Of a DNA stretch of 64,000 nt, positions 2,421 through 33,963 are shown piece by piece. A program made the position numbers and the translations under genes. Source of the DNA: Macrostomum lignano. Lineage: Eukaryota. The notes beneath the pieces were generated by a model. That model saw only the letters and a program-made list of their open reading frames with translations. It was not told the DNA's origin and made no database searches. The stretch covers positions 124,001 to 188,000 of the forward strand of contig NIVC01001192.1 of the NCBI GenBank assembly GCA_002269645.1, given 5' to 3'. Numbering within the stretch: the first letter of the stretch is position 1; every line of letters starts with the position of its first letter.

Positions 2421-2641
2421 CCTGTAACTGTTGTAAACGATAAGGCATATTTCTCCGTGCAGTAGTTGTTACACTTTTTGTTTACTTTTCTTATTAAATG
2501 TTGTTTATTTCACTTTTGAATAAGTTTTAACACTTTAATGTTTTTACTACCGCACCATGTAAACCAAGTTTTAGATTCACAAGCGCAGTCAAACTGCATA
2601 AATTTTATTGTGGTGTATTTTTTCTAACCTGAGTAGCGTAC

Positions 2642-2834
2642 TGTAGTCTGGCTTGTTGGTGCGCGTGCACTTAGATGTGCACGTCTGGTTTTGGGGGTTG
2701 GGGTTTAGCGCTGCAGCGTGTGCGTGCTTAGGGTGGTTACACCCACCCCAACTTTGGCATTAAATATATTGGCGTGAGCCAGTGAGGTCTCCTCACGTTT
2801 TGTTATTCACTGCAATTCAACCCACGGTCTTACA
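2642..2834 (+). repeat. 5' LTR of Gypsy element
   Basis: TGTAGT...CTTACA; direct repeat of 7390-7582. Confidence 0.96.
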
Positions 2835-2835
2835 C

Positions 2836-2848
2836 TGGTGGCAGCGGT
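2836..2848 (+). promoter_or_regulatory. Primer-binding site (tRNA-Leu type)
   Basis: TGGTGGCAGCGGT, 1 nt after the LTR; complementary to the 3' end (ACCGCTGCCA-CCA) of metazoan tRNA-Leu AAG/TAG as recalled. Confidence 0.8.
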
Positions 2849-2854
2849 CTCAAT

Positions 2855-3649
2855 ATGGCCAAATCAGAGCAAGCCAGTTTATTGCCTCCAAAGTTCAGCG
2901 GCGACTCCAACGTGAGAATGTGGCTAAGCACGTTTGAAGACTTCGCCGACGACTGTGAATGGGACGACAAGAAGAAGGCAAAGAAGCTGAGACTGCTGGT
3001 GACAGGAGAAGCGCAAATCTTCGTTTGGGAGCAGCCGGCAGACGTGTCAGCCAGCTATGAAAGTCTGAAGGAGAAGCTGATCGAGTGCTTCGGCAACAGT
3101 CTGAGCTGCTACAGAGCAATGGAGGATTTTGTAGAGCGAAAGCGACAGCCCAACGAGTCGCTGAGGGAGCTCGCCTACAGCCTGAAGCTTCTCCACCTTC
3201 GGGCCCGCCCGGACGACTCCGTGGCGGCTCGGGAAAAGGACGTGAAGTTTCGCCTGATGCACCTCCTGCCATCTGCCGTGAGAGATGCGCTGTTGAAGGA
3301 CCAGGACGCGGACTCGTGTTCGCTGACCGCTATCGTCGACAGAGCTGCGCAGCTTGAGCTGGTGAGCCACGCAACTACAGCCTCATCAGCCGCGGTGTCG
3401 GTAGAAGACAGACGGCTGAGCCAGCTGGAGCAGCAGATGCAGCAGCTGACAGCCAGCGTGCGAACGGGACCACTCGGAAGAGACAGGCGTCAGAAGGGAC
3501 CCATCAAGTGCTTCAGCTGCGGCGAGCCGGGTCACATCGCTAGGCGGTGCCCAAAGGCGATCGGCAGCCGCTGCAGCCGGTGCTCAGGCAAGGGTCACTC
3601 CGCCGCGGTGTGCCCGACACCAACTGGTCAGCCGCAGGGAAACTTCTGA
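2855..3649 (+). CDS. gag: Gag (retrotransposon capsid + two CCHC zinc knuckles)
   Basis: PPKFSGD...W...F capsid start; CFSCGEPGHIARRC and CSRCSGKGHSAAVC knuckles. Confidence 0.93.
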   Translation: MAKSEQASLLPPKFSGDSNVRMWLSTFEDFADDCEWDDKKKAKKLRLLVTGEAQIFVWEQPADVSASYESLKEKLIECFGNSLSCYRAMEDFVERKRQPNESLRELAYSLKLLHLRARPDDSVAAREKDVKFRLMHLLPSAVRDALLKDQDADSCSLTAIVDRAAQLELVSHATTASSAAVSVEDRRLSQLEQQMQQLTASVRTGPLGRDRRQKGPIKCFSCGEPGHIARRCPKAIGSRCSRCSGKGHSAAVCPTPTGQPQGNF

Positions 3650-3679
3650 GGGTCGGCAGCCTGGGGCCAGCACCGACCC
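3637..3679 (+). promoter_or_regulatory. -1 programmed ribosomal frameshift signal
   Basis: G GGA AAC heptamer (3637-3643) in the gag frame, 6-nt spacer, then stem GGGTCGG (3650-3656) / CCGACCC (3673-3679). pol is in the -1 frame. Confidence 0.85.
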
Positions 3680-6600
3680 GCTCAAAAGGGGCCCTCAGAT
3701 CAGCGCCTTCAGTCTTCGTGAAGGTGCACTTTGGCAGCGTGTCAGCGCCTGCTCTGCTCGACACCGGCGCGCAAGTTTCGTTGATGGACAAGTCGCTGTT
3801 CGACAGACTGCAGTGCAAGATCGACTCCACCGACATCGGTGCGCTGCCGACGGCCGTCGACGGATCCCGGCTGCGCTGCCTTGGCCTGTCAGCAGCGGAT
3901 GTTTCGATCGGCCAGACCATCCGCGTGCGCCATCGCTTCACAGTCGTGGACGGCATCCAGCCCAACCTGATCATCGGCATGGACTTCATCGGCGAGGTGT
4001 CGCAGGCGATGACCATTGACATTAAAGAAGGCGTCGTCAGGTTCGACAGCACAGCCGTGCCTTTCAGCAGCGAGCCGGCTCGAGCAGACTGTCGCCTGGT
4101 GCCGAGTGTCCTGGTGGCGCGTGTGGCGGCAACTACGGAGTTGCCCGCCCGCAGCGAGAAGCTGGTGTGGCTCAAGGTGGATTCCAGCGGCGAGCAGGGA
4201 GTCTTTGAGCCGTCTGGGGACTTCTTGAAGTCCACTGCCGTCCTGCCGGTCCGCGTGCTGGCGGTCTCGGACGACTGCCGCATCCCGGTGAAAATGTGCA
4301 ACCTGGAAGAGGAGCCCGTGCTGCTGTACGCCAACAAGGCGGTCGGCACGTTCGAAGGCGCGATGACAGACGGGGACGGTCGCCAGGAGGCGGCCCAGGA
4401 GAACCCCGTCGGTTGGAACATGAACGCGGAGCTGCCCGAACCGGATGCTGCGAGGCTGCGACAGCTGCTGGAGAGCAACGAGGACCTGTTCGCCAGGCAC
4501 GAGTACGACCTGGGCACGACGGCGTTGCTGCAGCACCAGATCGAGCTGGAGCCGGGAGCGCGGCCACACCGGCAGGTCCAGCGCCGGCTGCCGCTGTCTG
4601 TGCGAGACCAGGTGGACAAGAAGATCGGCCAGATGCTGGAAAGCGGCATCATCGAGCCGTCGACATCGCCATGGGCCAGCAACCTGCTGGTGGTCCGCAA
4701 GAAGAACGGCGACATCAGACTGTGCACGGACTGGCGGCAGCTCAACGCCTGCACGGTCAAGGATGCGTACCCGCTGCCGCACCTGCAGCAGGCCATGGAT
4801 GCGCTTGTCGGATGCTCCTGGTTCTCCACCATCGACTGCCGGCAGGGCTACCACCAGGTGGAGGTGGCGGAGGAGGACCGGTACAAGACGGCTTTCTATT
4901 CGACGCGCGGCCTGATGCAGTTCTGCAAGATGGGCTTCGGGATGTGCAATGCCCCGGCGACGTTCCAGCGGCTCATGGAACTGGTGATGTCCGGCCTGTC
5001 CTGGGAGTCCGTGCTGACTTATATCGACGACATCATTGTCTTCAGCAGGACGTTCGACGAGCACTTAGAGAGGCTGGCGGAAGTTTTTAAGCGGTTGCGA
5101 GACGCGGGACTCAAGCTGCATAAGGCCAAGAGCGCGTTCGGCCATCGCCGGGTGCTGTACCTGGGACACCTGATCAGCGAGCAGGGCATCGCACCGGATC
5201 CCGGCAAGGTCGAGGCCATTCGCAGCATGCCCAGCCCAACGACGACCGAGGAGGTGAAGCGGTTTCTTGGAATGCTGGGGTTCTACCGTCGGTTCATCCC
5301 AGGCTTCAGCCAGACGGCGAGGGTCCTGCACGACGTCAGCGTGAAATCGAGGGACTTCGCGTGGAGCAGCGACTGCGAGCGAGCGTTCCACGAGTTGAAG
5401 GACCGACTGACGACGGCTCCGGTGCTGAGGCTGCCGGATTTTACCAAGCAGTTCGTGCTCAGCTGCGACAGCAGTCAGTTCGCCGTCGGCGCGGTGCTCA
5501 GCCAGCTGCACAGTGACGCCGAGCTGCCTGTGTCGTTCGCCTCTCGCACCCTCAACAAGGCCGAGCGCAACTACTCGGCGACCGACCGCGAGCTGCTGGC
5601 GCTGGTCTGGAGTCTGAAGCACTTCAGGACGTACCTGCTGAGTGTCCCGAGCTTCAGAGTCTACTCGGACCACCGGCCACTGCAAGGTCTGCTGGCAACG
5701 AAGGACCCCGAAGGTCGGCTGGCGCGATGGCTTTCTACGCTGCAGCAGTTTTCGTTCGAGCTGCTGTACCGGCCTGGCAGGGACAACGTCGTGCCGGATG
5801 CGCTGAGCCGGGTGGCCGGCACGCGCCTGCAGCCTCGGTGGGACGACAGCCGCCTGCACGAGGAGCAACTGCAAGACCCGCTGCTGAGCAAGGTGTTCCA
5901 GGCGCTGACCGACGGGATTGACAGCCTGTCCGATTCATGGGCGGCGCAGGTTCGCGAGCTGCTGGACGAGGCCTCGGTGAGCTCGGCGGGTGTCCTGCTG
6001 GTGGGTGGCCGGCCAGTCATTCCCGGTCACCTGCGGCCGCATTTTCTGCAGCAGGCGCACTCGTGCGACCAGAGCGGACACCTCGGCGTCGACAGGACCG
6101 GAGCGAGATTGTCTGAGCGCTGCTGGTGGCCTGGTCTGCGACGGGACGTCGAGAACTGGGTGGCCAGCTGCGCGGTCTGCCTGGCCAAGAAGAGTCCAAC
6201 CAAGCCGCAGAAGGCGCCGCTACAGTCGACGTGCCAGCCGACGGCTCCGTGGCAGCTGGTGCAGATCGACATCAAAGGGCCGCTTCCGCGTACGACTGAT
6301 GGCAAGGCGTACATCCTGAGCATGTGCGACGCCTTTTCCAAGTGGATGGAGACGGCAGCCCTGGCGGCGATCGACGCGGTGACGGTGGCGGAGGCGCTGC
6401 TCAAGTCGGTGGTTCTGCGTCACGGCGCTCCTCAGGTGCTGCACAGTGACCAGGGACGGCAATTCGAGAGCGAGGTGTTCGGCCGGCTCTGCGAGCAGCT
6501 GGGCGTTGAAAAGACGCGCACGTCGCCGTTTCATCCGAGCGGCAACGGAATCGTCGAGCGAGGCAACCGGACGCTCGGCGATATGCTGGCGACGACGGTG

Positions 6601-7353
6601 GCCGAGAACCAGCAGGATTGGGACAGCAAGCTGCCGTATGTGACCTGGGCCTACAACACCTCCGTGCACAGCACCACCGGCCTCAGTCCGTACCAGGTCC
6701 TCCACGGCTGGCCACCGAGGCTGGCTCTCGAAAGCTGGCTGATAAGCGGCGACCGGCCGGCAGCCGACGGTGGACATCACGGCTTCCTGCGGCGGACTCA
6801 GGAGAACCTGCAGAGCGCTTTCGACACAGTGCACGGCCGACTGCGGAGCGCCCAGGTCGAGCGCAACCGGCTGGCCAACCAGGACTCTCGGTTCGTGCCG
6901 TTCGAAGAGGGCCAGCTCGTGATGCTGCGCAACTCCGTCATCAAGCGCGGCCAGACGCGGTGCCTGAGCGCCAAGTGGAAGGGGCCGTACCGAGTCCTGA
7001 GGCGCCTGGGCGAGGTCAATTACCGCATCCAGGACGAGACCGGCCGCAGGCGCCGGCTGGTGGTGCACCACGACCGCCTCAAGCGCTTCGTGCAGCGGCG
7101 GGCGTCACTGGAGCTTCCGGCCGCAGCAGACCACCAGCCGCCGGCCGCCGACTCCAACAACGACGGCACCGTCGCTGAGCCGCCCGGGCAGGCGGCCGAT
7201 CCTGACGGCGACGCGGTGACCTTCTGGCCCGAGCTGCAGGCAGACGAGGCACCCGAGGAGCAGCCGGCGGCACCGGCCGAGCTGGTCACGGTTCCCCGGC
7301 GGTCGGCGAGAGAGCGGCGGCCACCTGACTTGTACATGGCGGGCTTTGCTTGA
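3640..7353 (+). CDS. pol: Pol polyprotein (protease, RT, RNase H, integrase), expressed via -1 frameshift
   Basis: LLDTGA (PR); YPLP and YIDDII (RT); CDSS...GAVLSQ, ERNYS, DHRPL (RH); H-H-C-C, QIDIKGP, SDQGRQF, VERGNRTL, WKGPY (INT). Uninterrupted frame. Confidence 0.96.
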   Translation, partial: KLLRVGSLGPAPTRSKGALRSAPSVFVKVHFGSVSAPALLDTGAQVSLMDKSLFDRLQCKIDSTDIGALPTAVDGSRLRCLGLSAADVSIGQTIRVRHRFTVVDGIQPNLIIGMDFIGEVSQAMTIDIKEGVVRFDSTAVPFSSEPARADCRLVPSVLVARVAATTELPARSEKLVWLKVDSSGEQGVFEPSGDFLKSTAVLPVRVLAVSDDCRIPVKMCNLEEEPVLLYANKAVGTFEGAMTDGDGRQEAAQENPVGWNMNAELPEPDAARLRQLLESNEDLFARHEYDLGTTALLQHQIELEPGARPHRQVQRRLPLSVRDQVDKKIGQMLESGIIEPSTSPWASNLLVVRKKNGDIRLCTDWRQLNACTVKDAYPLPHLQQAMDALVGCSWFSTIDCRQGYHQVEVAEEDRYKTAFYSTRGLMQFCKMGFGMCNAPATFQRLMELVMSGLSWESVLTYIDDIIVFSRTFDEHLERLAEVFKRLRDAGLKLHKAKSAFGHRRVLYLGHLISEQGIAPDPGKVEAIRSMPSPTTTEEVKRFLGMLGFYRRFIPGFSQTARVLHDVSVKSRDFAWSSDCERAFHELKDRLTTAPVLRLPDFTKQFVLSCDSSQFAVGAVLSQLHSDAELPVSFASRTLNKAERNYSATDRELLALVWSLKHFRTYLLSVPSFRVYSDHRPLQGLLATKDPEGRLARWLSTLQQFSFELLYRPGRDNVVPDALSRVAGTRLQPRWDDSRLHEEQLQDPLLSKVFQALTDGIDSLSDSWAAQVRELLDEASVSSAGVLLVGGRPVIPGHLRPHFLQQAHSCDQSGHLGVDRTGARLSERCWWPGLRRDVENWVASCAVCLAKKSPTKPQKAPLQSTCQPTAPWQLVQIDIKGPLPRTTDGKAYILSMCDAFSKWMETAALAAIDAVTVAEALLKSVVLRHGAPQVLHSDQGRQFESEVFGRLCEQLGVEKTRTSPFHPSGNGIVERGNRTLGDMLATTVAENQQDWDSKLPYVTWAYNTSVHSTTGLSPYQVLHGWPPRLALESWLISGDRPAADGGHHGFLRRTQENLQSAFDTVHGRLRSAQVERNRLANQDSRFVPFEEGQLVMLRNSVIKRGQTRCLSAKWKGPYRVLRRLGEVNYRIQDETGRRRRLVVHHDRLKRFVQRRASLELPAAADHQPPAADSNNDGTVAEPPGQAADPDGDAVTFWPELQADEAPEEQPAAPAELVTVPRRSARERRPPDLYMAGFA

Positions 7354-7376
7354 CTCTGGAACTGTCTTTTGCTTCT

Positions 7377-7389
7377 AGGGGGAAAGTAG
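7377..7389 (+). promoter_or_regulatory. Polypurine tract
   Basis: AGGGGGAAAGTAG immediately before the 3' LTR. Confidence 0.85.
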
Positions 7390-7582
7390 TGTAGTCTGGC
7401 TTGTTGGTGCGCGTGCACTTAGATGTGCACGTCTGGTTTTGGGGGTTGGGGTTTAGCGCTGCAGCGTGTGCGTGCTTAGGGTGGTTACACCCACCCCAAC
7501 TTTGGCATTAAATATATTGGCGTGAGCCAGTGAGGTCTCCTCACGTTTTGTTATTCACTGCAATTCAACCCACAGTCTTACA
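7390..7582 (+). repeat. 3' LTR of Gypsy element
   Basis: Copy of 2642-2834; single G/A difference (2826 vs 7574). Confidence 0.96.
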
Positions 7583-8905: not shown

Positions 8906-11150
8906 ATGAAGTGCAAGTGCGTTATAATATTGGTTTCGCTTTTGACGTGTAAGTAAAAATACCCATTAATAATAGGACCAGTTATATGGTCCAGGGTGGC
9001 AGTAATTTGCACGCACTTGCACGTTATTCTGTCTATTCATTTTTTCTATCCCTTGGTGTCGCAAACTCTATATTAATTACTGAGAATTTATTTCTCGTTC
9101 GCTAAGATTTTCACTTGTCATATTAGCTGAGGAATGTGTTTTACAGGTTCAGTAGGACTCTTCAATGATAGCACGGAGACCTGGCAGTAATGCCAGGGAC
9201 ACTTAAAGCTGTTCTTAATTGCAATTTGAATCAACCAACGACGAAGAGAAACGAGCTGTGCTGCTTTGTACGTGCAGCAGAGACACGCTGAGATCGACCT
9301 CTTCTGCTGACTGTTTAAACAAAGCATTGAAGGTCATAAATGTTGAAATCGGTGGGCGATAATTCATAGAGGGTAAATTTTCACACCCTTTAAAATTCGC
9401 TAATTGGGAACCTGCAAAAAAGGGCATTAATGGTTTATAATTAAGTCAGTTCGATTGTTTGGCTCTTTCAAGTTGTTGAATAGTTTGCAGTCGCTAGTTG
9501 CTAATTGGTTGGCAGTTGCTAGTTGCTAATTGGTTGACAGTCGCTAGTTGCTAATTGGTTGGCAGTTGCTAGTTGTTGATTGGTTGACAGTTGCTATTTG
9601 CTAATTGGTTGGCAGTTGCTAGTTGCTAATTGGTTGACAGTCGCTAGTTGCTAATTGGTTGGCAGTTGCTAGTTGCTAATTGGTTGGCGGTTGCTAGTTG
9701 CTAATTGGTCTGCAGTTGCTAGTTGCTAATTGGTTGACAGTCGCTAGTTGCTAATTGGTTGGCAGTTGCTAGTTGCTAATTGGTTGGCGGTTGCTAATTG
9801 TTAATTGGTTGACAGTCGCTAGTTGCTGATTGGTTGGCAGTTGCTAGTTGCTAATTGGTTGGCAGACTGGCAGTTGCTAGTTGCTAATTGGTTGGCAGTT
9901 GCTAGTTGCTAATTGGTTGGCAGACTGGCAGTTGCTAGTTGCTAATTGGTTGGCAGACTGGCAGTTGCTAGTTGCTAATTGGTTGGCAGTTGCTAGTTGC
10001 TAATTGGTTGGCAGACTCGCAGTTGCTAGTTGCTAATTGGTTGGCAGACTGGCAGTTGCTAGTTGCTAATTGGTTGGCAGTTGCTAGTTGCTAATTGGTT
10101 GGCAGACTCGCAGTTGCTAGTTGCTAATTGGTTGGCAGACTGGCAGTTGCTAGTTGCTAATTGGTTGGCAGACTCGCAGTTGCTAGTTGCTAATTGGTTG
10201 GCAGACTCGCAGTTGCTAGTTGCTAATTGGTTGGCAGACTGGCAGTTGCTAGTTGCTAATTGGTTGGCAGTTGCTAGTTGCTAATTGGTTGGCAGTTTCT
10301 AGCTGCTGATTTTTATAATCGCTACCAAAAATTGTATAAAACTGCAAAGTTAATCAAATTCTACGCGCCAGGTGATGCCATTTGTTCGAGGTGAACTAGA
10401 TGAGCCTGCAGTGCCAGTGGACTCTGCAGCCTGCCAACTACGATAATCCGAGGCAGATGTACATTCGTGTACCCGTTATCAACTTTGACACCCAACGATA
10501 GGTCTGAGGCTCAGTGCTGCATCTCTACAGCCAAAGTCGATGTGTTCAGCCTAAAGTTAAAACTGGACGATAGTGAGTTAGCCGTTTTAATTTAACTTGA
10601 ATTATAATTTTACAATTTTCGTTTTTAAAAACAAACTAATCGTATAATCTTGCATTTCAGCAACGTACCGAAATGAGTTCTGGTGCTCAAATAATTCAGT
10701 AAAAGTCAAGAGCCCAATTGGGAATTTATGGAACTCGTGAGTGTCTTGAAGCATCTGCGATTTTGGACTGGTTATTCCCTGAAGTATTAATTATCATATT
10801 TGCTCTCTTACCTTTGCTCAGGTCGTACAAGCTGGCTTTGGAGTTCCGCTCTGACGATAAGCAAGTCCGGTCCGGTCCGGTTCTTTGAGGGCTCCTGCTA
10901 ACACCTGACACTTGATCTGATAACACCTGAGATTACACCTGCTGAGGCATTCAACATCGCAAAGAATTACCTTGGCAACGTCTTCACGGTTCCTAAAAAC
11001 AGAAACGACTCAGCCTTTTTCCGTCCCTTTATTCAGCGAAGTGAGCATTGCGTTTATTATATGGCATGCTTTATCGCCTGTTGATCGATTTGTTGGTATC
11101 CCAATCATTGCAGACTCGGACAGAGCTGGCGAGTTCCCATTCGAGTTTCT
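8906..11150 (+). pseudogene. CUB-CTLD receptor pseudogene P1 (B-type)
   Basis: Exon 1 MKCKCVIILVSLLT (8906-8948, GTAAGT donor). Exon 2 frameshifted with a stop; exons 3 and 5 carry indels; exon 6 is cut off next to a SINE. Homologous to the intact copy at 47296-50221. Confidence 0.85.
9487..10310. repeat. 25-bp minisatellite (GTTGCTAGTTGCTAATTGGTTGGCA, with 33-bp variants) in intron 2 of P1
   Basis: Direct tandem repeats; variants add GACTGGCA or GACTCGCA. Confidence 0.95.
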
Positions 11151-12516: not shown

Positions 12517-12568
12517 TTTCTACGCTTGTACCTTAAAAACTGCTAAAAGCCGACTACTCTTCTGTCGG

Positions 12569-13485
12569 TGAAGAGTTTAAGAGTGGTGATCAGTCACTCA
12601 AAAACTCCCACTTCTAGACACGGGGGAACAAGTGCCTAGGTATTTATCAGTTCAAATAACTTACTTCAGCGGATCCTCTTGGGGTCGGCAGCCGGTGGAG
12701 TTCTGTGGCGCGTCGGGATAGCAAGCTTGCTGAGCGGTTACGGCGACCGGTTCCGGTGAACCACTGTTTTTCTTTGGTGTCCTTAACTTTATCTGTGGGT
12801 CGACCAAACGAGAGCGAATCAGAACTTCTTAACGGTCCTCGAGCTCGGAATTCACAATAGAACGTGCGCCCTAATGAACAATTGAATTCTCTAATTTTCT
12901 GTGATAGGTCCTCCTGAAGGGCGGCTTCTTCGTTACGTCCGAAACGTAACGGATAACTCAATTAAATCAATAAATCCTCTAGGAATATCCTAGGAAACAA
13001 GGAGGCCTTTCTCAAATGTATCGACAATGAACTGCTCTCGTATACTCAATCAATCACTTTATTAGCGCTACTAACAATTAACTAAATCGGGTAAACGCTT
13101 ACCAATTGGACAGGGATGGTCCCTCAGAGATTGGTCTTCTTATTTCTTCGGTGTCTTCTTAGAGACCGCTCCGAGTCTGAATTTTGACTTGAATTTTCAC
13201 TTATATTTATAGCAAAATTTTGGAGAAAAACCGGTTTGGGATTGGGTATTTACTTAGGTCAAAAATGTTTGATTAAGCGGTCATGCATGTTTGAGCATTA
13301 CCATATATGGAGTTAAACAAATACAGCTGTTGAAATCCGGTTCCTTGATCAAACAATGTAGGGTTCTAAATCATTCTGTTTGCGCGTGATTCCTAAAATA
13401 GATATGACTCATTTTGAAAGAAATTGACTTCCTTAGAATATTACTTTAAGTAGAGCATTACGGTATGGTCTAATAACTCTCTACA
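12569..13485 (-). repeat. 3' LTR of env/RING element
   Basis: TGTAGAGAG...CTCTTCA on minus. CArG box CCATATATGG at 13301-13310, TATAAATA at 13204-13211, AATAAA at 13058-13063 (minus). Confidence 0.95.
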
Positions 13486-13500
13486 ATATCTCCCCTTTTC
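13486..13500 (-). promoter_or_regulatory. Polypurine tract
   Basis: GAAAAGGGGAGATAT on minus, abutting the 3' LTR. Confidence 0.85.
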
Positions 13501-13678: not shown

Positions 13679-14278
13679 TTAATAGGAAAGCGTATTATTC
13701 AGTATATCGTTTACTTTGGTTGTCAATCTCGCGAGTGGCCACAGTAAGTGCTGTATCGGCGTAAATTGTGTTGATTCGGTGGCGTTGAGGAATTCCAGGT
13801 AGATCTCTTCAGTTGTACTCGTAGTATTTATTGGATGCGCCGCATATTGACGTACCAAGTCAAAAAGATATTCCAAATGGTCTCTCTTGTTGAATGGTAT
13901 TGGCCAGGTTCGTATAGCTGTTGCTAGTTCCTTGGCCGTCATACTGTCCATGGTCTCCTTTGTAAGTTGGATCTTTGGTAATGTTGTTGTTCCGGCGTAA
14001 ATTTCCTTAGATATTGGCGCTGCACAAGTTATGCAATGCTTATAGTCGCGGCACCGAATTTTTAGAGCACAATCTCGGCAGACCCAGTGTCCGTTGGCGC
14101 ACATCCTTTGTTGCGGTGTTGTATTGCATACCTGGCACAGGGTAGGTGGTGCGCGGCATAGCGGGCATTTGTCTATTCTATCCGTTGTGCAGCAGTTATA
14201 GCAGAACTTATGCCCATGCTGACAGTAGACATACTGTTCAGTGTCTTCATAACAAACAATGCACTCGTCGCTATCCAT
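13679..14278 (-). CDS. Accessory protein B: two SINA/SIAH-like RING fingers + helical C-terminal domain (199 aa)
   Basis: CIVC...CQHGHKFCYNC...CPLC and CQVC...CANGHWVCRDC...CITC. Shares the IRTWPIP motif with the adjacent ORF. Confidence 0.85.
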   Translation of the reverse strand: MDSDECIVCYEDTEQYVYCQHGHKFCYNCCTTDRIDKCPLCRAPPTLCQVCNTTPQQRMCANGHWVCRDCALKIRCRDYKHCITCAAPISKEIYAGTTTLPKIQLTKETMDSMTAKELATAIRTWPIPFNKRDHLEYLFDLVRQYAAHPINTTSTTEEIYLEFLNATESTQFTPIQHLLWPLARLTTKVNDILNNTLSY

Positions 14279-14350
14279 GTCTGAAAATGGTCAATTTGAT
14301 AAGTAATATCTGTGCAAGAATGGTTGCAATATCTGTGGGTGCATGGTATT

Positions 14351-15001
14351 TTAATCAATTTCTGAAGCGGAACTATTATAGTCATATGATTCTTGGGGTG
14401 GTAATATATAAGACAAGTCCTCATTACGCAGAATGAGTGCAGGTAGAGCTGTACAGAGGATGGGGCATGGGTGAAAATTCATATCGTTAACAATTTTAAA
14501 CAGCTTATGTTCAATTTCTTGTGGAGATAATTGCCGGAGTCTAGAACCGTAGGAAGAGGAATAGCGAACGAGGTATTTACGTGTTTTATGAGCAGCACGT
14601 GGTATGGGCCATGATCTGAGGCGGATAATTATAGCATGTGATGGAAAAAGAGCATAAGTGAATGGGTGAAGCTGTAGGTTGTAGTCCGCTTGAATGCATG
14701 CAAGTTTGTTGTTAACTTTAGGTAAAGGGGTGGCATCGCATATAGGACACTGACAAATGGAGCGATAAGCAAGCTTCTTAATACATTGTGTGCACATAAA
14801 ATGTTGATTTAAGCAATATTGTTCAGTGCGCCAGGAGTTGCATATCATGCATTGACGGAGATTACCTCGACACATAGGGCAATTTTTTAAAGGTTTTTTG
14901 TAATGTGCAAGGCTTAAGCAAGAACCACACACCTGGTGTCTATTGACACATATACAAGGTAGTTTACATGAAAATTCTCCGAGACAGATAGGACAATCCA
15001 T
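14351..15001 (-). CDS. Accessory protein A: two SINA/SIAH-like RING fingers + helical C-terminal domain (216 aa)
   Basis: CPIC...CVNRHQVCGSC...CPMC and CMIC...CLNQHFMCTQC...CPIC; LRSWPIP motif. Confidence 0.85.
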   Translation of the reverse strand: MDCPICLGEFSCKLPCICVNRHQVCGSCLSLAHYKKPLKNCPMCRGNLRQCMICNSWRTEQYCLNQHFMCTQCIKKLAYRSICQCPICDATPLPKVNNKLACIQADYNLQLHPFTYALFPSHAIIIRLRSWPIPRAAHKTRKYLVRYSSSYGSRLRQLSPQEIEHKLFKIVNDMNFHPCPILCTALPALILRNEDLSYILPPQESYDYNSSASEID

Positions 15002-15132
15002 TGTCGTGTTTGTCGTAGTTGTGTGAGCGTTTGTAGGAAAACAAGGATTTAGTCGCCTCTTACGACAAGCTTGAGGAAGCTGTAGTGCTATTCTTTATCC
15101 CGGTCACTACACGGGGACATGAAGCGAATAAT

Positions 15133-18100
15133 TTAACGAGGTCTTAGGTTGTACGTATGACCGACAGGTGGTGCGTTTGTTGTTTGTGTTTCGGCGTGTG
15201 CAGTGGCAATGTGTTTATTTGTTGTTTTTGTGTGGTCTGGATTTTGTAGGTCTGGGAGGAATGTAGTGTCGTTAGTGATACGTTTTAGACGTTGAATGTG
15301 AACATAGAACTGAGGTTGATGTGGATCCTGGATATTAGCGAGGCGTGCTGATACTAGAGAAGGCTTAGGTAGGTCTCGCTTATGTCGTTCTATGACATCT
15401 TTTCTCTGATAGGTTCCATTTACTACCTTCAGGAAAACATTCTTATCCATATCCTTAAGCGCGATTGGTATTTCTTGGTCGGAGAGGATTAGTTGCTCGT
15501 CCTTGTTTTTACATTTCAAGTGTGTGTAGCTTGGTTGCTTTGGAAATGTAAGAGCCAAATCTCCTGAGTCGGCAAGGAAGGTGTTAGATAGCAGTTTCCC
15601 TTGAACAGTGTGATATTTTTGCAGCTTGCAGTCAATTTCAGTTTTTACTTCCCATGCAGTGAAATATTTGCGGGTTCGGCTGGGCTCCTCATATCGGGAA
15701 TCCGATCTATATTCAATTTGGTATCGATAGTCATGGAAATAAATCGGTGCTAGGGGTAAATTTTGAGCTTCTTCTTTGTTGTAGTTAGGGGTAGAACAAT
15801 ATCCAGAGCTGTAGTGACACTGGTCGAGTGGTAGCTGTAAGGATTCCATGTTGTCAAATGGATTGTGGTAGAATAAAACATTTCGGATGAGGTAGCTATT
15901 GTAGACTGAGTATGTAGGCCATCGTGATTGATGATAATGGACATATCTTCCATCGGCTACATTTTTTGTGCGAAATAGCTGTGCTCCGCTGGCGGACGTC
16001 TCATGAAGTTTTAATTGACCATCTTCGGAAAACAGAGTTTGATTCCACCGAAGGCATTCTTCTTGTGATACCATCATCGAAGTTTGCCAATACCTGATTC
16101 GGTTCCATTGTACCAGCCAAACCTTTTCAATTTCATCCTTGTCTCGGAAGCACACAATTCCCATTTGTCGATGCTTCTTTGTATTTGCTTTGTATATTTC
16201 AATAGTTAGTGGTAGTGGCTTGGTTTGGTTTGTCTTAAAGTAACTGCATTTGATTTCCGTAGGAATCTTGTAAATGACTGGCTGGATGTCTCCATCAGTG
16301 GGACAGATCATTGGAGATGGAGACGGCAGTACCGTGGGAACAATTGCCATCATCAAGATCGTGAGGAAGCATTGCAGTAGCGGATGTTTTTTCTTTCGTC
16401 TTGTTGGTACTGGTGGAGTGTCTTCAATCTCGTCATGACTATCTTCAGGATACGGCGGAGGAGTAAGGCGAGTCGAAAAGTGCCATTTGTTAGAACATGG
16501 TAATGGTGTGGGTGGCTGCGATTGCAACATCGGACGCATAAAGTTGGTTGATTTTGATATATTGGTAAGATGTGTAGTTGTATTCTCATCAGTTGGAGTG
16601 TTAACCGGTTCCATTATTGTTATCGGTTCATCATATTCGCTTTCATAGTCTAGGTTCATTGAAACATATGTGTCATCCTCCGTCTGTACGAACTTTTCAT
16701 CTGTCGAATGGTTAGATTGTGTGTTCGTGGCCTTGTCATGTTTCCATTTTTCGTGGACTGGACTAGGGGAGACAATATTTTCATAGTCTGGTTCCTGTGT
16801 TGGAGGTGTTTCTGACAGGTCTATATCGTCGACTAGGACCTGCAACATGTCAACGCTTTCTTCAAAGATGTTTTGAGAAGTTGCTGGATCTCTGTCTTCT
16901 TCAAGTGTTGTCATTTCTTTACGATCCTGGAAATTGTCATCTCGGTGAGTTTCCGAAAGATTGTCGATCGTCGGAACTTTAAATAGATTGCTTTGTTGCT
17001 TAGAAATAGTTTGTTGTTGTCTTTTGTTTTCTCGGAAGACTGGACTTGCTTTAGAAGAGGTAGGAATGGGTGGATCTTCTTCAAACAGAGAATCCATCAT
17101 GCAGCTACTTTCGCTGCTTGTGCTATCTTTTCGTTTTTCAAACTCCTCAAGGACATTGATTGTGAAATCCGGCATAAGATCCTCTATCTTAAACTCTGGT
17201 TCGATGACTTGAGTGTATTCCGGTTCAATAGCTTGAGCATATTGTCTGCGGACCTGAGTAGGCTGTCTTGGAGGAGGAGGATTTCTTTGTTGTCGATAAG
17301 GTACCAAGGCATTTCCTTGTCTATTCTGTGGTGGGTTCCAATTGCGATTTTGAGGACGAGTCCAATTTTTTCTTCTGTTGTCATTATATTGTCTTGGATT
17401 GCCACGTGATCGGCAGTCTCTGGTGTAATGACCAATTCTTCCACAGGTGTAACAAGTGGGTGGCGGAGCGTATCTCTGTCGCTGTGGCATGATTGCAGAA
17501 GTTTGGTACTGCTGCATGAGTTTGCTCAATTGTTCTCCCAATTGTGTCGTATCACTACTACGAGAAGTCAGGAGTGGGGCACTTGCTTCCCATTGTATGC
17601 CGCAACGAATTAATTGTTCCTCTGTCTCAATGGTTTCTCTTAACAACCTGTCTCGCAGCGAAGGTTGAGCATTATTAATGACATGGAGGATTAGGCTTTG
17701 TTCTTGGTCAGCAAGGCGTTGTCTTTCTCGTGCAGCTAGTTCTGCTGGTCCGATAGGCTGAGCTCCTGGGTTCGGTGGTGGTGGCTGGTGCAACGCTTTA
17801 ATAATTTTGCGGACGTCATCGACGAAAGTAAGGAAGGATTCCGTCGGACTCATTTTTCGATTATGAAGTTTGTGTAGAAGCACAGATCGATTGGTTCCAC
17901 ATCTGGCGAATTGTGCTCTCAGTTGTGTAACTAAAGTATGATAGTCTTGCTGTGCGGCGGCATTTAGTTTGCCATAAATTTCTCGAGCAGTACCTTCTAA
18001 CAGTGGAGGAAGAAGAAGTGCCTTTTCTGGATTTTGTAGTCCGTATTCGCGAGTTACAAGGTCGAAGTGTTCAATGAAGGTGTTAAAATCTTTATCCATG

Positions 18101-18207
18101 GTATACATTCCAACAGTTTCCTTGACATCGCGATGCACTGTAGGGTTTCTTCGAGCCATATTTTCAAATGGGAACGGCAAGAGGACCAGATCTGGATCAA
18201 TTTCCAA
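15133..18207 (-). CDS. Gag - acidic linker - internal signal peptide - Env-like ectodomain - integrase C-terminal tail fusion (1024 aa)
   Basis: Gag-type N-terminus (FNTFIEHF...LLEGTAREIY) and CYTCGRIGHYTRDC knuckle. RRKKKH followed by hydrophobic PLLQCFLTILMMAIVPTVLP. Cys-patterned ectodomain, RHKR furin-like site, ends VHIQRLK...YNLRPR. Confidence 0.85.
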   Translation of the reverse strand: MEIDPDLVLLPFPFENMARRNPTVHRDVKETVGMYTMDKDFNTFIEHFDLVTREYGLQNPEKALLLPPLLEGTAREIYGKLNAAAQQDYHTLVTQLRAQFARCGTNRSVLLHKLHNRKMSPTESFLTFVDDVRKIIKALHQPPPPNPGAQPIGPAELAARERQRLADQEQSLILHVINNAQPSLRDRLLRETIETEEQLIRCGIQWEASAPLLTSRSSDTTQLGEQLSKLMQQYQTSAIMPQRQRYAPPPTCYTCGRIGHYTRDCRSRGNPRQYNDNRRKNWTRPQNRNWNPPQNRQGNALVPYRQQRNPPPPRQPTQVRRQYAQAIEPEYTQVIEPEFKIEDLMPDFTINVLEEFEKRKDSTSSESSCMMDSLFEEDPPIPTSSKASPVFRENKRQQQTISKQQSNLFKVPTIDNLSETHRDDNFQDRKEMTTLEEDRDPATSQNIFEESVDMLQVLVDDIDLSETPPTQEPDYENIVSPSPVHEKWKHDKATNTQSNHSTDEKFVQTEDDTYVSMNLDYESEYDEPITIMEPVNTPTDENTTTHLTNISKSTNFMRPMLQSQPPTPLPCSNKWHFSTRLTPPPYPEDSHDEIEDTPPVPTRRKKKHPLLQCFLTILMMAIVPTVLPSPSPMICPTDGDIQPVIYKIPTEIKCSYFKTNQTKPLPLTIEIYKANTKKHRQMGIVCFRDKDEIEKVWLVQWNRIRYWQTSMMVSQEECLRWNQTLFSEDGQLKLHETSASGAQLFRTKNVADGRYVHYHQSRWPTYSVYNSYLIRNVLFYHNPFDNMESLQLPLDQCHYSSGYCSTPNYNKEEAQNLPLAPIYFHDYRYQIEYRSDSRYEEPSRTRKYFTAWEVKTEIDCKLQKYHTVQGKLLSNTFLADSGDLALTFPKQPSYTHLKCKNKDEQLILSDQEIPIALKDMDKNVFLKVVNGTYQRKDVIERHKRDLPKPSLVSARLANIQDPHQPQFYVHIQRLKRITNDTTFLPDLQNPDHTKTTNKHIATAHAETQTTNAPPVGHTYNLRPR

Positions 18208-18505: not shown

Positions 18506-18523
18506 GCCTGGGCGAGATCACCA
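18506..18523 (-). promoter_or_regulatory. Primer-binding site (tRNA-Val-like)
   Basis: TGGTGATCTCGCCCAGGC, 2 nt from the 5' LTR; the implied tRNA 3' end (CCTGGGCGAGATCA-CCA) resembles tRNA-Val as recalled. Confidence 0.65.
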
Positions 18524-18525
18524 GT

Positions 18526-19442
18526 TGAAGAGTTTAAGAGTGGTGATCAGTCACTCAAAAACTCCCACTTCTAGACACGGGGGAACAAGTGCCTAGGTAT
18601 TTATCAGTTCAAATAACTTACTTCAGCGGATCCTCTTGGGGTCGGCAGCCGGTGGAGTTCTGTGGCGCGTCGGGATAGCAAGCTTGCTGAGCGGTTACGG
18701 CGACCGGTTCCGGTGAACCACTGTTTTTCTTTGGTGTCCTTAACTTTATCTGTGGGTCGACCAAACGAGAGCGAATCAGAACTTCTTAACGGTCCTCGAG
18801 CTCGGAATTCACAATAGAACGTGCGCCCTAATGAACAATTGAATTCTCTAATTTTCTGTGATAGGTCCTCCTGAAGGGCGGCTTCTTCGTTACGTCCGAA
18901 ACGTAACGGATAACTCAATTAAATCAATAAATCCTCTAGGAATATCCTAGGAAACAAGGAGGCCTTTCTCAAATGTATCGACAATGAACTGCTCTCGTAT
19001 ACTCAATCAATCACTTTATTAGCGCTACTAACAATTAACTAAATCGGGTAAACGCTTACCAATTGGACAGGGATGGTCCCTCAGAGATTGGTCTTCTTAT
19101 TTCTTCGGTGTCTTCTTAGAGACCGCTCCGAGTCTGAATTTTGACTTGAATTTTCACTTATATTTATAGCAAAATTTTGGAGAAAAACCGGTTTGGGATT
19201 GGGTATTTACTTAGGTCAAAAATGTTTGATTAAGCGGTCATGCATGTTTGAGCATTACCATATATGGAGTTAAACAAATACAGCTGTTGAAATCCGGTTC
19301 CTTGATCAAACAATGTAGGGTTCTAAATCATTCTGTTTGCGCGTGATTCCTAAAATAGATATGACTCATTTTGAAAGAAATTGACTTCCTTAGAATATTA
19401 CTTTAAGTAGAGCATTACGGTATGGTCTAATAACTCTCTACA
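18526..19442 (-). repeat. 5' LTR of env/RING element
   Basis: Copy of 12569-13485 at offset 5957; no differences seen by eye. Confidence 0.95.
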
Positions 19443-19839
19443 TCGGGTCTGTATGCCGGTTTTATCTTTTGTTCAAATTCCCCTTTTACAGCCAACGTTA
19501 GCACCAATGCGAGTTCAAGTGTGAGAGAGAATGTGCCTTCGGTTCTTTTATATACATGCAGATATCTTTGTGGCCTCTAAGCTCTTGAAAGAGTAAAAAT
19601 TATATAATGCTTTCTGGATTGCTTGCTCATTTTATGTTGTTCAGGCACTTAGAAAGATACAAATGTTTATTCCCCATTGGTAGTAGCAAGTGGGACATAG
19701 AATTGAAACAGACTTTTTTAATAGTTTTGGCCAGCTTCAAATAGTCGTCAGACTACGTCGCGACTGACTCTCCTGATTAATACAAACGATTCGTTTTCAG
19801 GCACCCATATTGTACTTACTGATTTCAGCCAAGTTAACG

Positions 19840-22378: not shown

Positions 22379-22581
22379 GATTCATATTGACGAGAAAGAA
22401 GTTGAAAGCGAATTGTTTGAATTAGTTTGTTAATTTTAGCTTAACAGTTTATTGCTGTGTTGTATGCTTATACATAAAAATTAAGAAATTAAAACACAGT
22501 GGAATGTTGCTGATTTTTTTGATTATTAAAAGTTAAAATCAACATAGATTGTAATAAATTCTTTCTTACATGGGATTTCAG

Positions 22582-23090
22582 TTCCTCTTGCTCTGGCGGC
22601 AGGTGTTGTGTATAAGTTCTCTTGTTCTGTTGACCAGAACATTACCTATATAGGTAAAACTAAAAGGCACCTGTACACCAGAGTCAGAGAGCATTGGTTA
22701 AAAAGGTCGGCTATCCAAGACCACCTGCTCTGTTGCAACAGTTGTTGCGAAATTGAGCAAACTCAGCAGTTTAAAATTATTGATCGGTGTAGAACTGATT
22801 TTAGGCTCAACATACTTGAATCCATGTACATTAAAGACCAAAAACCTAATCTGAATATTCAGCTCTCCCATAGTGGTGCGGGCCATTTGCTCAAGGTATT
22901 CTAAGTAAAGGCACTAGTCTGAACAATGTACTTGCAATCTATGCTTAACATTTTTTGGAAAATTCTGCCCATGACATGCCCTTTGGACTGTACAGTTAAC
23001 ATTTGTTCACTTATAAAGTTGTTGTGTGAGTTAAAAATACACCAGACCCTGAAGATGGTCATTGCTGGACCGAAACGCGTCGGAAGAAAG
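22582..23090 (+). mobile_element. 5'-truncated Penelope-like element (GIY-YIG endonuclease tail + 3' region)
   Basis: VVYKFSC...YIGKTKRHLYTRVREH...SAIQDH...ILESMYIK...PNLN, followed by a hammerhead motif. Confidence 0.85.
23047..23083 (+). ncRNA. Minimal hammerhead ribozyme of the Penelope element
   Basis: CC-CTGAAGA-T-GGTC(ATTGCTG)GACC-GAAA-CGCG-TC-GG: conserved core, stem II, palindromic stem III. Confidence 0.75.
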
Positions 23091-23588
23091 AATTAATTAT
23101 AATCTATGTTGATTTTAACTTTTGTATTTCTCTGCCTGCTAAAGCGTGCTACCTTACCTCAATTTTCTGATTATTATATTTTACCGTTGTATTAGCATCA
23201 TGACGCACCGGTTTTCAAGCTTAGACCTTCGATTGTAATATTAACGTTGACTATATTTTATTCATATTAGTTTATTCTATTTACGTTTAGCGTTTTCTCT
23301 GGTCCTCGCGCAAAACAACTGAGACCCTAAAACGCAAAAGCACGTAAAAAATTGATTCCTTGATTTCAACTTTTGTTGAACTACCTTCGTTTGGAAGTAT
23401 TTTGATTAAAAGAAACGCTAGATTACAAGCAAAGAATTATGAATCTGCCGGTTGCCCAATCTACAGTATTTTAGATAGGTAAACCTAAATCAGTAAAAAG
23501 TGCCCGGAAATTGTTTTTTAACAGAATTTGTACGAATAAAACCTGGGCGTTGCACACGCATGGGACAAAAAAGTATATGGAAGGGTAG

Positions 23589-26043: not shown

Positions 26044-28407
26044 ATGAAGTGCAAGTGCGTAATAATATTGGTTTCGCTTTTGACATGTAAGTAAAAATTC
26101 CCATAAATAATAGCGCTGCAATAACATTGCCACTTGTAGTAACTTCAGTTGTATGGTCCAGGGTGCAGTAATTTGCACGCAGTTGCACGTTATTCTGTCT
26201 ATTCATTTTTTCTATCCCTTGGTGTCGCAAACTCTATATTAATTACTGAGAATGTATTTCTCGTTCGCTAAGATTTTCACTCGTCATATTAGCTGAGGAA
26301 TGTGTTTTACAGGTTCAGTAGGACTCTTCAATGATAGCACGGAGACCTGGCAGTAATGCCAGGGACACTTAAAGCTGTTCTTAATTGCAATTTGAATCAA
26401 CCAACGACGAAGAGAAACGAGCTGTGCTGCTTTGTACGTGCAGCAGAGACACGCTGAGATCGACCTCTTCTGCTGACTGTTTAAACAAAGCATTGAAGGT
26501 CATAAATGTTGAAATCGGTGGGCGATAATTCATAGAGGGTAAATTTTCACACCCTTTAAAATTCGCTAATTGGGAACCTGCAAAAAAGGGCATTAATGGT
26601 TTATAATTAAGTCAGTTCGATTGTTTGGCTCTTTCAAGTTGTTGAATAGTTTGCAGTCGCTAGTTGCTAATTGGTTGGCAGTTGCTAGTTGCTAATTGGT
26701 TGACAGTCGCTAGTTGCTAATTGGTTGGCAGTTGCTAGTTGTTGATTGGTTGACAGTTGCTATTTGCTAATTGGTTGGCAGTTGCTAGTTGCTAATTGGT
26801 TGACAGTCGCTAGTTGCTAATTGGTTGGCAGTTGCTAGTTGCTAATTGGTTGGCGGTTGCTAGTTGCTAATTGGTCTGCAGTTGCTAGTTGCTAATTGGT
26901 TGACAGTCGCTAGTTGCTAATTGGTTGGCAGTTGCTAGTTGCTAATTGGTTGGCGGTTGCTAATTGTTAATTGGTTGACAGTCGCTAGTTGCTGATTGGT
27001 TGGCAGTTGCTAGTTGCTAATTGGTTGGCAGACTGGCAGTTGCTAGTTGCTAATTGGTTGGCAGTTGCTAGTTGCTAATTGGTTGGCAGACTGGCAGTTG
27101 CTAGTTGCTAATTGGTTGGCAGACTGGCAGTTGCTAGTTGCTAATTGGTTGGCAGTTGCTAGTTGCTAATTGGTTGGCAGACTCGCAGTTGCTAGTTGCT
27201 AATTGGTTGGCAGACTGGCAGTTGCTAGTTGCTAATTGGTTGGCAGTTGCTAGTTGCTAATTGGTTGGCAGACTCGCAGTTGCTAGTTGCTAATTGGTTG
27301 GCAGACTGGCAGTTGCTAGTTGCTAATTGGTTGGCAGTTGCTAGTTGCTAATTGGTTGGCAGACTCGCAGTTGCTAGTTGCTAATTGGTTGGCAGACTGG
27401 CAGTTGCTAGTTGCTAATTGGTTGGCAGACTCGCAGTTGCTAGTTGCTAATTGGTTGGCAGACTCGCAGTTGCTAGTTGCTAATTGGTTGGCAGACTGGC
27501 AGTTGCTAGTTGCTAATTGGTTGGCAGTTGCTAGTTGCTAATTGGTTGGCAGTTTCTAGCTGCTGATTTTTATAATCGCTACCAAAAATTGTATAAAACT
27601 GCAAAGTTAATCAAATTCTACGCGCCAGGTGATGCCATTTGTTCGAGGTGAACTAGATGAGCCTGCAGTGCCAGTGGACTCTGCAGCCTGCCAACTACGA
27701 TAATCCGAGGCAGATGTACATTCGTGTACCCGTTATCAACTTTGACACCCAACGATAGGTCTGAGGCTCAGTGCTGCATCTCTACAGCCAAAGTCGATGT
27801 GTTCAGCCTAAAGTTAAAACTGGACGATAGTGAGTTAGCCGTTTTAATTTAACTTGAATTATAATTTTACAATTTTCGTTTTTAAAAACAAACTAATCGT
27901 ATAATCTTGCATTTCAGCAACGTACCGAAATGAGTTCTGGTGCTCAAATAATTCAGTAAAAGTCAAGAGCCCAATTGGGAATTTATGGAACTCGTGAGTG
28001 TCTTGAAGCATCTGCGATTTTGGACTGGTTATTCCCTGAAGTATTAATTATCATATTTGCTCTCTTACCTTTGCTCAGGTCGTACAAGCTGGCTTTGGAG
28101 TTCCGCTCTGACGATAAGCAAGTCCGGTCCGGTCCGGTTCTTTGAGGGCTCCTGCTAACACCTGACACTTGATCTGATAACACCTGAGATTACACCTGCT
28201 GAGGCATTCAACATCGCAAAGAATTACCTTGGCAACGTCTTCACGGTTCCTAAAAACAGAAACGACTCAGCCTTTTTCCGTCCCTTTATTCAGCGAAGTG
28301 AGCATTGCGTTTATTATATGGCATGCTTTATCGCCTGTTGATCGATTTGTTGGTATCCCAATCATTGCAGACTCGGACAGAGCTGGCGAGTTCCCATTCG
28401 AGTTTCT
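26044..28407 (+). pseudogene. CUB-CTLD receptor pseudogene P2 (chimera of P3 5' part and P1 3' part)
   Basis: Same lesions as P1. Diagnostic bases match P3 up to ~26283 and P1 from ~26652. Confidence 0.85.
26653..27567. repeat. 25/33-bp minisatellite, copy 2
   Basis: As 9487-10310 but 91 bp longer. Confidence 0.95.
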
Positions 28408-29772: not shown

Positions 29773-30217
29773 TTTCTACGCTTGTACCTTAAAAACTGCT
29801 AAAAGCCGACTACTCTTCTGTCGGGTCTGTATGCCGGTTTTATCTTTTGTTCAAATTCCCCTTTTACAGCCAACGTTAGCACCAATGCGAGTTCAAGTGT
29901 GAGAGAGAATGTGCCTTCGGTTCTTTTATATACATGCAGATATCTTTGTGGCCTCTAAGCTCTTGAAAGAGTAAAAATTATATAATGCTTTCTGGATTGC
30001 TTGCTCATTTTATGTTGTTCAGGCACTTAGAAAGATACAAATGTTTATTCCCCATTGGTAGTAGCAAGTGGGACATAGAATTGAAACAGACTTTTTTAAT
30101 AGTTTTGGCCAGCTTCAAATAGTCGTCAGACTACGTCGCGATTAACTCTCCTGATTAATATAAACGATTCGTTTTCAAGCACCCATATTGTACTTACTGA
30201 TTTCAGCCAAGTTAACG

Positions 30218-32753: not shown

Positions 32754-32956
32754 GATTCATATTGACGAGAAAGAAGTTGAAAGCGAATTGTTTGAATTAG
32801 TTTGTTAATTTTAGCTTAACAGTTTATTGCTGTGTTGTATGCTTATACATAAAAATTAAGAAATTAAAACACAGTGGAATGTTGCTGATTTTTTTGATTA
32901 TTAAAAGTTAAAATCAACATAGATTGTAATAAATTCTTTCTTACATGGGATTTCAG

Positions 32957-33465
32957 TTCCTCTTGCTCTGGCGGCAGGTGTTGTGTATAAGTTCTCTTGT
33001 TCTGTTGACCAGAACATTACCTATATAGGTAAAACTAAAAGGCACCTGTACACCAGAGTCAGAGAGCATTGGTTAAAAAGGTCGGCTATCCAAGACCACC
33101 TGCTCTGTTGCAACAGTTGTTGCGAAATTGAGCAAACTCAGCAGTTTAAAATTATTGATCGGTGTAGAACTGATTTTAGGCTCAACATACTTGAATCCAT
33201 GTACATTAAAGACCAAAAACCTAATCTGAATATTCAGCTCTCCCATAGTGGTGCGGGCCATTTGCTCAAGGTATTCTAAGTAAAGGCACTAGTCTGAACA
33301 ATGTACTTGCAATCTATGCTTAACATTTTTTGGAAAATTCTGCCCATGACATGCCCTTTGGACTGTACAGTTAACATTTGTTCACTTATAAAGTTGTTGT
33401 GTGAGTTAAAAATACACCAGACCCTGAAGATGGTCATTGCTGGACCGAAACGCGTCGGAAGAAAG
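32957..33465 (+). mobile_element. Penelope-like fragment, copy 2
   Basis: Identical GIY-YIG ORF at 32983-33279. Confidence 0.85.
33422..33458 (+). ncRNA. Minimal hammerhead ribozyme, copy 2
   Basis: Same motif as 23047-23083. Confidence 0.75.
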
Positions 33466-33963
33466 AATTAATTATAATCTATGTTGATTTTAACTTTTGT
33501 ATTTCTCTGCCTGCTAAAGCGTGCTACCTTACCTCAATTTTCTGATTATTATATTTTACCGTTGTATTAGCATCATGACGCACCGGTTTTCAAGCTTAGA
33601 CCTTCGATTGTAATATTAACGTTGACTATATTTTATTCATATTAGTTTATTCTATTTACGTTTAGCGTTTTCTCTGGTCCTCGCGCAAAACAACTGAGAC
33701 CCTAAAACGCAAAAGCACGTAAAAAATTGATTCCTTGATTTCAACTTTTGTTGAACTACCTTCGTTTGGAAGTATTTTGATTAAAAGAAACGCTAGATTA
33801 CAAGCAAAGAATTATGAATCTGCCGGTTGCCCAATCTACAGTATTTTAGATAGGTAAACCTAAATCAGTAAAAAGTGCCCGGAAATTGTTTTTTAACAGA
33901 ATTTGTACGAATAAAACCTGGGCGTTGCACACGCATGGGACAAAAAAGTATATGGAAGGGTAG

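Follow-up and report, generated by a model that had tools for sequence, protein, structure and literature searches.

An LTR retrotransposon in the analysed 64-kb stretch of Macrostomum lignano DNA (hereafter the window) carries two paralogous double-RING genes, RING-A and RING-B, as its last two open reading frames. This RING cassette is under purifying selection across families of the element. Judging from sequence features, and with roughly even confidence, we suggest that the two genes encode RING E3 ligases of the element itself, which would target, in trans, proteins that the host uses for restriction or silencing, with RING-B produced from a spliced subgenomic RNA.

The element, its two RING genes and their expression

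The element spans 19442-12569 on the minus strand (6.9 kb) and is a GAG-ENV-POL Ty3/gypsy LTR element of errantivirus type, with env located between gag and pol. Its features are as follows, in 5' to 3' order.

18526..19442, minus strand: 5' LTR, 917 bp, TG...CA, holding a GT-AG intron (19059-18750) and a splice donor
18512..18523, minus strand: primer-binding site TGGTGATCTCGC (from sequence)
15133..18159, minus strand: single ORF of 1008 aa with Gag, half of Env and the integrase tail (ORF and domain matches)
15050..15115, minus strand: conserved non-coding motif of ~65 nt (alignment of 8 families)
14351..15001, minus strand: RING-A gene, 216 aa; RING1 14995-14870, RING2 14851-14738, then a helical WP domain
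14279..14290, minus strand: splice acceptor TTTTCAG, cut at 14281/14280 (joint and sequence)
13679..14278, minus strand: RING-B gene, 199 aa; RING1 14263-14156, RING2 14137-14024, then a helical WP domain
13486..13500, minus strand: polypurine tract preceding the 3' LTR (from sequence)
12569..13485, minus strand: 3' LTR, 917 bp (target duplication CCGA at the flanks)

The two LTRs are identical (917/917 bases), the 4-bp target-site duplication CCGA is found at 19443-19446 and 12565-12568, and the empty insertion site is kept in a duplicated segment at 29821-29824. The identical LTRs and the preserved empty site indicate a very recent insertion. The 1008-aa ORF encodes Gag with a CCHC knuckle, then a class III (gB-type) Env of which the N-terminal half remains, as far as the furin site, and last the C-terminal tail of integrase. 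The rest of Env and PR-RT-RH-IN have been lost through an in-frame deletion of ~4.4 kb, which falls on a short microhomology near 15341-15348. Longer copies (e.g. locus L015) contain a single ORF ordered Gag-Env-PR-RT-RH-IN, which identifies the window copy as an in-frame deletion derivative that lost pol and kept both RING genes. Env is of class III and complete in longer copies of the family, where it includes the furin site and a transmembrane segment. The Env profile matches gB of the herpesvirus MHV68 (E 2.3e-5), and its similarity to Monjiviricetes_fusion falls below the cut-off (E 2.6e-4). Inspection of the LTR revealed no canonical heat-shock element, and no tRNA matched a guessed primer-binding site pattern.

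Ten genomic places match the whole cassette at 96-100% (10 of 43 matches). The window's deletion type is represented by five whole copies, each in its own flanks and with LTRs that differ from each other by 0-2 bases. The target duplications of these five copies (window, L012, L013, L014 and L016) all contain a CG (CCGA, TCGA, CTCG, CTCG and GACG), which is found in none of four copies of other deletion types (L018, L066-L068), in what are small numbers. Such a bias may reflect different helper integrases or bursts. One of the other types is a 3.2-kb Gag-only derivative (L066-L068) with identical or near-identical LTRs, which could supply extra Gag to a family encoding Gag, Env and Pol in one ORF. 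Its 13718-17377 joint appears in six of eight sequencing runs and was rejected as a Gag splice, being non-canonical at every shift, showing a 7-nt microhomology and being carried by three genomic copies.

Further repeats occupy the window. A second, unrelated GC-rich Ty3/gypsy element at 2638-7582 has 197-bp LTRs that are 99% identical and a pol frame of 1269 aa. Multi-kb tandem segmental duplications with 25-bp satellite arrays lie at 7583-37020, 9487-10307, 26653-27564 and 37021-38165, one of which contains the empty insertion site. At 22528-23123 and 32903-33498, 55-nt inverted repeats flank a 118-aa frame that resembles a GIY-YIG nuclease remnant.

The first-pass annotation had described the two genes as intact, highly diverged paralogues with four RING-like units of C-x3-H-x2-C-x2-C spacing and a shared R(S/T)WPIP stretch, and the sequence agrees with this description. 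Both ORFs are open and uninterrupted on the minus strand, in the ORF listing as well as in a check of the sequence. The full pattern C-x2-C-x(7-13)-C-x3-H-x2-C-x2-C-x(6-16)-C-x2-C (eight ligands, C3HC4) has exactly four matches when all six frames of the window are read, two of them in each ORF, with CVNRH, CLNQH, CQHGH and CANGH at the four sites. Residue shuffles of the two ORFs never gave the full eight-ligand pattern (0/300). The R(S/T)WPIP stretch is present in both proteins, which are 24% identical over 181 aa (E 3e-13). Zinc ligands are invariant or nearly so across the family alignments A1 and A2. In Pfam, RING-B matches zf-C3HC4_3 above the cut-off (32.6 bits) and RING-A has no RING match. 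The window proteins begin MDC and MDS, without a Gly2 in either.

Contigs of eight public sequencing runs were compared with the window, with GT-AG joints taken as the mark of RNA. The splice donor AA/GTAAGT lies at 18622/18621 inside the 5' LTR. A GT-AG joint (18622-14280) connects this donor to a position 2 nt before the RING-B ATG and is found in two of the eight runs (X6 and X7, from one study), its shorter side covering 29-30 nt. Neither of the two runs of unclassified kind lists it, and one of these (X15) resembles DNA. The LTR-internal GT-AG intron (19059-18750) is supported by a joint in 3/4 runs and by a matching loose end in 2/4 others. These joints apply at the level of the family, as the transcribed copy is not distinguishable among near-identical ones. 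The spliced leader contains no AUG. The donor GTAAG is kept in all 26 LTR matches listed, down to 79% identity, and CAG directly precedes the start in 9/9 second-position genes and 0/4 third-position genes.

The motif at 15050-15115 is conserved in all eight aligned families and contains a candidate acceptor, YACAG/CT at 15081, between two invariant hairpins. None of 12 hairpin pairs is compensatory, with no covariation, and Rfam returned no match for the motif. No joint to the 15081 acceptor, and none for RING-A, is listed for the eight runs. The proposed spliced subgenomic RNA is hence seen for the second gene, with 14281 as the acceptor in place of the one suggested near 15081. In the accessible part of PMC12801592, a heat-upregulated transcript (supplement 2, row 82) is annotated as zf-C3HC4_3 with 32.9 bits, close to the RING-B score; RING is found there in the transcript annotation table only (text and five supplements).

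Spread and selection of the RING cassette

RING-B has at least 149 matches in the genome, down to ~25-30% identity (150 of 186 candidates scored). The cassette context was inspected at 28 loci, to which all statements on intactness refer. RING matches are present in 24 of these, and 17 of the 24 have an integrase just upstream, either in the same locus (15) or in an adjoining one (2). The remaining seven resemble fragments. These LTR-linked homologues bear out the view that the genes are not a one-off host capture. RING ORFs extracted from the inspected loci are uninterrupted, and some copies of the cassette are broken or deleted. Cassettes consist of two or three paralogues (A+B, A+C or A+B+C). 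The A-type and B-type genes each form a well-supported clade, and the "C" genes comprise several lineages.

In a tree of RTs from this genome, the families with the cassette belong to a subclade whose RTs are ~80% or more identical. Twelve more distant GAG-ENV-POL loci (RT 28-47%) were sampled, and the cassette is found in none of the nine that have at least 1.6 kb after the integrase. Unrelated 3' ORFs of ~255-310 aa occupy the slot of the RING cassette in distant families (L053:2599-3396, L054:6603-7400, L055:2656-3465, L058:2361-3335 and L070:6612-7232). In one distant family (L052), the Env region is extended ahead of the furin site by a long mucin-like insertion rich in Thr and Pro.

Gain and loss are also apparent among close relatives. 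In an abundant sister subfamily, all five sampled copies keep only the front (RING part) of RING-A, without the second gene, and three young Gag-only copies have neither RING gene. Together with the absence from the distant loci, this indicates that the cassette is dispensable in cis. At locus L025, identity to the window family is 96-99% in pol and 85% in RING-A but falls to 32% in the second gene, a pattern that points to module exchange. RING-A of sister families starts with MGNA(L/Q)S (L041:7198-7863, L042:1890-2555, L061:6279-6689, L063 and L065), which we take to be myristoylation-like, and the short double-RING form of the abundant subfamily measures 124-144 aa. A three-gene RING cassette at L027:335-7974 lies within a Polinton/adintovirus-like region (capsid, A32 ATPase and an Eco47II-like ORF that is truncated where the two meet). 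We rejected a Polinton as the source of the cassette, as it interrupts this region and retains the upstream motif of the LTR element.

Beyond this genome, an HMMER profile search of 1.84 billion proteins gave four matches below 1e-30, one being an M. lignano model and the other three unnamed, full-length Logan proteins. Partial matches to the RING profile came from two additional Logan proteins. For the Logan proteins P0003 and P0004, identity to anything in this genome does not exceed 42% and 37%, respectively. P0003 groups with type A on a long branch (support 100/100), so that the split between A and B/C is probably old. The separate A and B clades and this outside protein agree with the old duplication that had been proposed. 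A search of 5.8 billion proteins with the single RING-B sequence returned nothing and one with the family profile only P0004, which suggests that the word index is weak here. Two matches to metagenome or viral contigs were judged non-homologous (L071, 34 residues with no matching ORF listed; L077, of single-RING length).

Selection on the genes, which the first-pass annotation had read from their intactness, is borne out by substitution rates. We compared 28 within-type RING pairs at 45% identity or more, of which 21 have unsaturated dS. In these 21 pairs, dN/dS is 0.12-0.42 (0.24 for the window RING-A against L025). Across all 28, pN is below pS at p < 0.01 in 27, the exception being a pair that is 97% identical. 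The values for comparison are 0.007-0.075 for RT and 0.045-0.12 for Env. RING genes are therefore constrained, yet the fastest-changing of the three.

Predicted ligase activity and competing explanations

AlphaFold2 models of RING-A (pLDDT 90.6, pTM 0.82) and RING-B (pLDDT 89.5, pTM 0.81) both consist of two packed RINGs and an all-helical C-terminal half. The models superpose locally on solved E3 RINGs at ~1.6-3 Å over 41-55 columns. Against the PDB, the family profile has 20 matches with E up to 0.01. Every one is a RING domain and almost every one belongs to an E3 ligase; the top match, the SIAH1 RING (9g0l, E 1.2e-5), is barely ahead of RING1B and TRIM21. On these models and profile matches a RING fold is confidently predicted for RING-A and RING-B, as had been anticipated. 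Foldseek gave local RING matches only, none at E up to 0.001 against the PDB and viral models. The helical half has no structural match above background, the best one (VIA, Z 6.6) lying within it. Given that no whole-protein fold match was obtained, a substrate-adaptor role of the helical domain is unsupported. A prediction of a complex of RING-A and RING-B, run without alignments, scored 0.00, which counts neither for nor against such a complex.

RING1 ends in C-P-x-C-R. The proline after ligand 7 is present in 26/26 sequences, the residue before Cys2 is I/V in 21/26 and otherwise C, and the arginine after the last Cys is invariant in alignment A2, including homologues of 22-40% identity. All three are marks of active RING E3s, belonging to the E2 contact or the linchpin. 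RING2 has an Arg at the linchpin position in 0/26. From these residues, RING-A and RING-B are predicted to have E3 activity, which we regard as fairly probable. Splicing from the 5' LTR, of which the joint is seen for RING-B, would yield small double-RING proteins, and RING-A may come either from an RNA of its own, spliced at 15081, or from an internal start. RING1 would bind and activate E2~ubiquitin, RING2 without the linchpin Arg might serve as a structural or partner-binding unit, and the helical WP domain might pick the substrate. This substrate would be a host factor by which the element is restricted or silenced, judging by the analogy to viral RING ligases, the faster evolution of the genes, the turnover of paralogues and the dispensability in cis. 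That the predicted activity is aimed at host defence has a little less than an even chance of being correct. As to the target class, piRNA or chromatin silencing or TRIM-like restriction would be a guess.

The same ligase features would fit a role in the element's own cycle, in which the proteins would be E3 ligases or E2 adaptors for ubiquitin-dependent budding (ESCRT), Gag and Env turnover or polyprotein processing. RING1 has the E2-contact and linchpin residues, the family encodes a complete Env of class III, furin site and TM segment included, and the MGNA(L/Q)S start of sister-family RING-A would suit such a role. We consider it unlikely, however, as the cassette is missing from the nine informative loci of more distant enveloped GAG-ENV-POL families, the window RING-A has no Gly2, and the gain, loss and swapping of paralogues would better fit a changing host target. 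Comparable doubts apply to catalytically silent decoys or matrix-like proteins, which might block host RING partners, E2s or translation factors. Arenavirus Z is a non-ligase RING with an N-terminal myristoylation Gly2. Lassa Z (7ckl_B) is among the structural neighbours of the models (rmsd 2.3-3.0 Å over 47-49 columns), the abundant sister subfamily retains a short MGNA double-RING form, and RING2 has no linchpin Arg. However, Z scores like ordinary E3 RINGs and no better, the window genes have no Gly2 start, the MGNA start being confined to sister families, and the Arg and Pro of RING1 are invariant down to the most distant homologues in the alignment, which makes decoys quite unlikely.

Non-catalytic zinc-finger regulators of the element's RNA, acting on export, splicing or translation in the manner of Rev or CERV through the hairpin motif at 15050-15115, are very unlikely in our view, although the first-pass annotation had named RNA export as one possible role. 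The element yields both spliced and unspliced RNAs, the conserved non-coding motif lies just upstream of RING-A, and Cer1 exports RNA through a spliced Cys-rich protein, CERV (PMC10309623, accessible part). CERV as described there is built of H, M and G domains and a C4-like loop and not of RINGs, however; the hairpins show no compensatory change, and the invariant E2-type residues would lack a reason to persist. The genes could also be passively carried host fragments, captured from SIAH or TRIM-like genes and without function for the element. Host SIAH and other C-x3-H RING genes are possible donors, and broken or deleted cassettes do occur, yet purifying selection across families with saturated synonymous sites largely refutes this explanation. 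The intronless ORFs are moreover fixed after the integrase in 17/24 RING-bearing loci, a dedicated splice acceptor is present, and host SIAH matches RING1 alone. We regard passive carriage as highly improbable.

Element-encoded E3 ligases directed at host proteins remain our preferred reading. The anti-restriction or anti-silencing role put forward in the first-pass annotation is plausible in view of the RING1 residues. In a stronger form, which we consider doubtful, the cassette would be a swappable double-RING E3 arsenal similar to Vif or ICP0, made from spliced RNAs and destroying flatworm piRNA, chromatin or TRIM-type factors in trans. Copies without pol, like that of the window, would then spread as ligase donors, and the ligase substrates would directly name host anti-retroelement factors. 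LTR retrotransposon proteins that attack host silencing are rarely documented. If the RING proteins are E3s, their substrates would reveal the proteins used against enveloped retroelements by a flatworm with PIWI-rich stem cells, RNAi and transgenesis, and the combination of two packed RINGs with a helical domain that has no structural match would make a small E3 of new architecture. Even if they are not ligases, they represent a conserved, spliced accessory gene family that is unmentioned in the published description of such elements (PMC13524379).

Comparison with known systems

In SIAH proteins, a single RING precedes zinc fingers and a substrate-binding domain of beta-sandwich fold. The RING genes share with SINA/SIAH the C3HC4 RING with C-x3-H spacing, and differ by the tandem double RING, an unrelated helical C-terminus, and the absence of the SIAH zinc fingers and substrate-binding domain. 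The Sina_RING profile (PF21362) scores 22.1 bits against RING-B, below the curated cut-off of 29.3, and has no match in RING-A at E up to 1. It is matched at E up to 0.01 by 23/27 family members, with some copies narrowly passing the cut-off, and the host's own SIAH scores 62-63 bits. Host SIAH aligns with the RING genes essentially over RING1 only. The C-x3-H spacing is also found in other host RING genes, in which it is followed by what we take to be a B-box-like motif, and does not therefore identify SIAH. Of the SINA/SIAH-type assignment in the first-pass annotation, the spacing holds and the membership does not. Host C-x3-H RING/B-box-like genes occur in clusters (L074-L076) and are possible donors or targets.

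Viral RINGs (herpesvirus ICP0, ostreid herpesvirus, giant-virus and arenavirus Z) are weak structural neighbours of RING1. These are local matches to a single RING, none at E up to 0.001, and none covers the architecture of a double RING with a WP domain. CERV of C. elegans Cer1, a spliced protein with an experimentally shown role in RNA export, is likewise a Cys-rich accessory protein of a Ty3/gypsy element and is set apart by the domain description in the accessible part of PMC10309623. PMC4604429 held no relevant content, and RING-ligase cargo in LTR elements was not found in the open literature, closed journals lying outside the search.

Cargo other than env is known from bdelloid LTR retrotransposons, whose ORF3 encodes a GDSL esterase or a DEDDy exonuclease (PMC5408684, accessible part). 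Like the RING genes, these are captured accessory ORFs located after a Ty3/gypsy pol and expressed as separate, typically spliced units. Unlike the RING genes, which occur as two or three paralogues beside a true env, the bdelloid cargo is described without the words "RING" or "ubiquitin" in the accessible part of that paper. GAG-ENV-POL errantiviruses with an HSV/gB-type ENV are described from Platyhelminthes, Bryozoa and Nematoda in the accessible part of PMC13524379, and the window family has in common with them the gag-env-pol order, the class III Env and the Ty3/gypsy pol. The reverse complement of the primer-binding site is identical to the 12-nt site listed for Platyhelminthes_Rhabditophora_Mlig_errantivirus_2 (PMC13524379 supplement). 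"RING" appears 0 times in the main text of that paper and "RING finger" 0 times in its seven supplements. The copy in the window departs from the published errantiviruses in having lost pol by deletion. Both the GAG-ENV-POL element type and non-env cargo of LTR elements are already known, and the RING cassette is the part for which the open literature gave no precedent.
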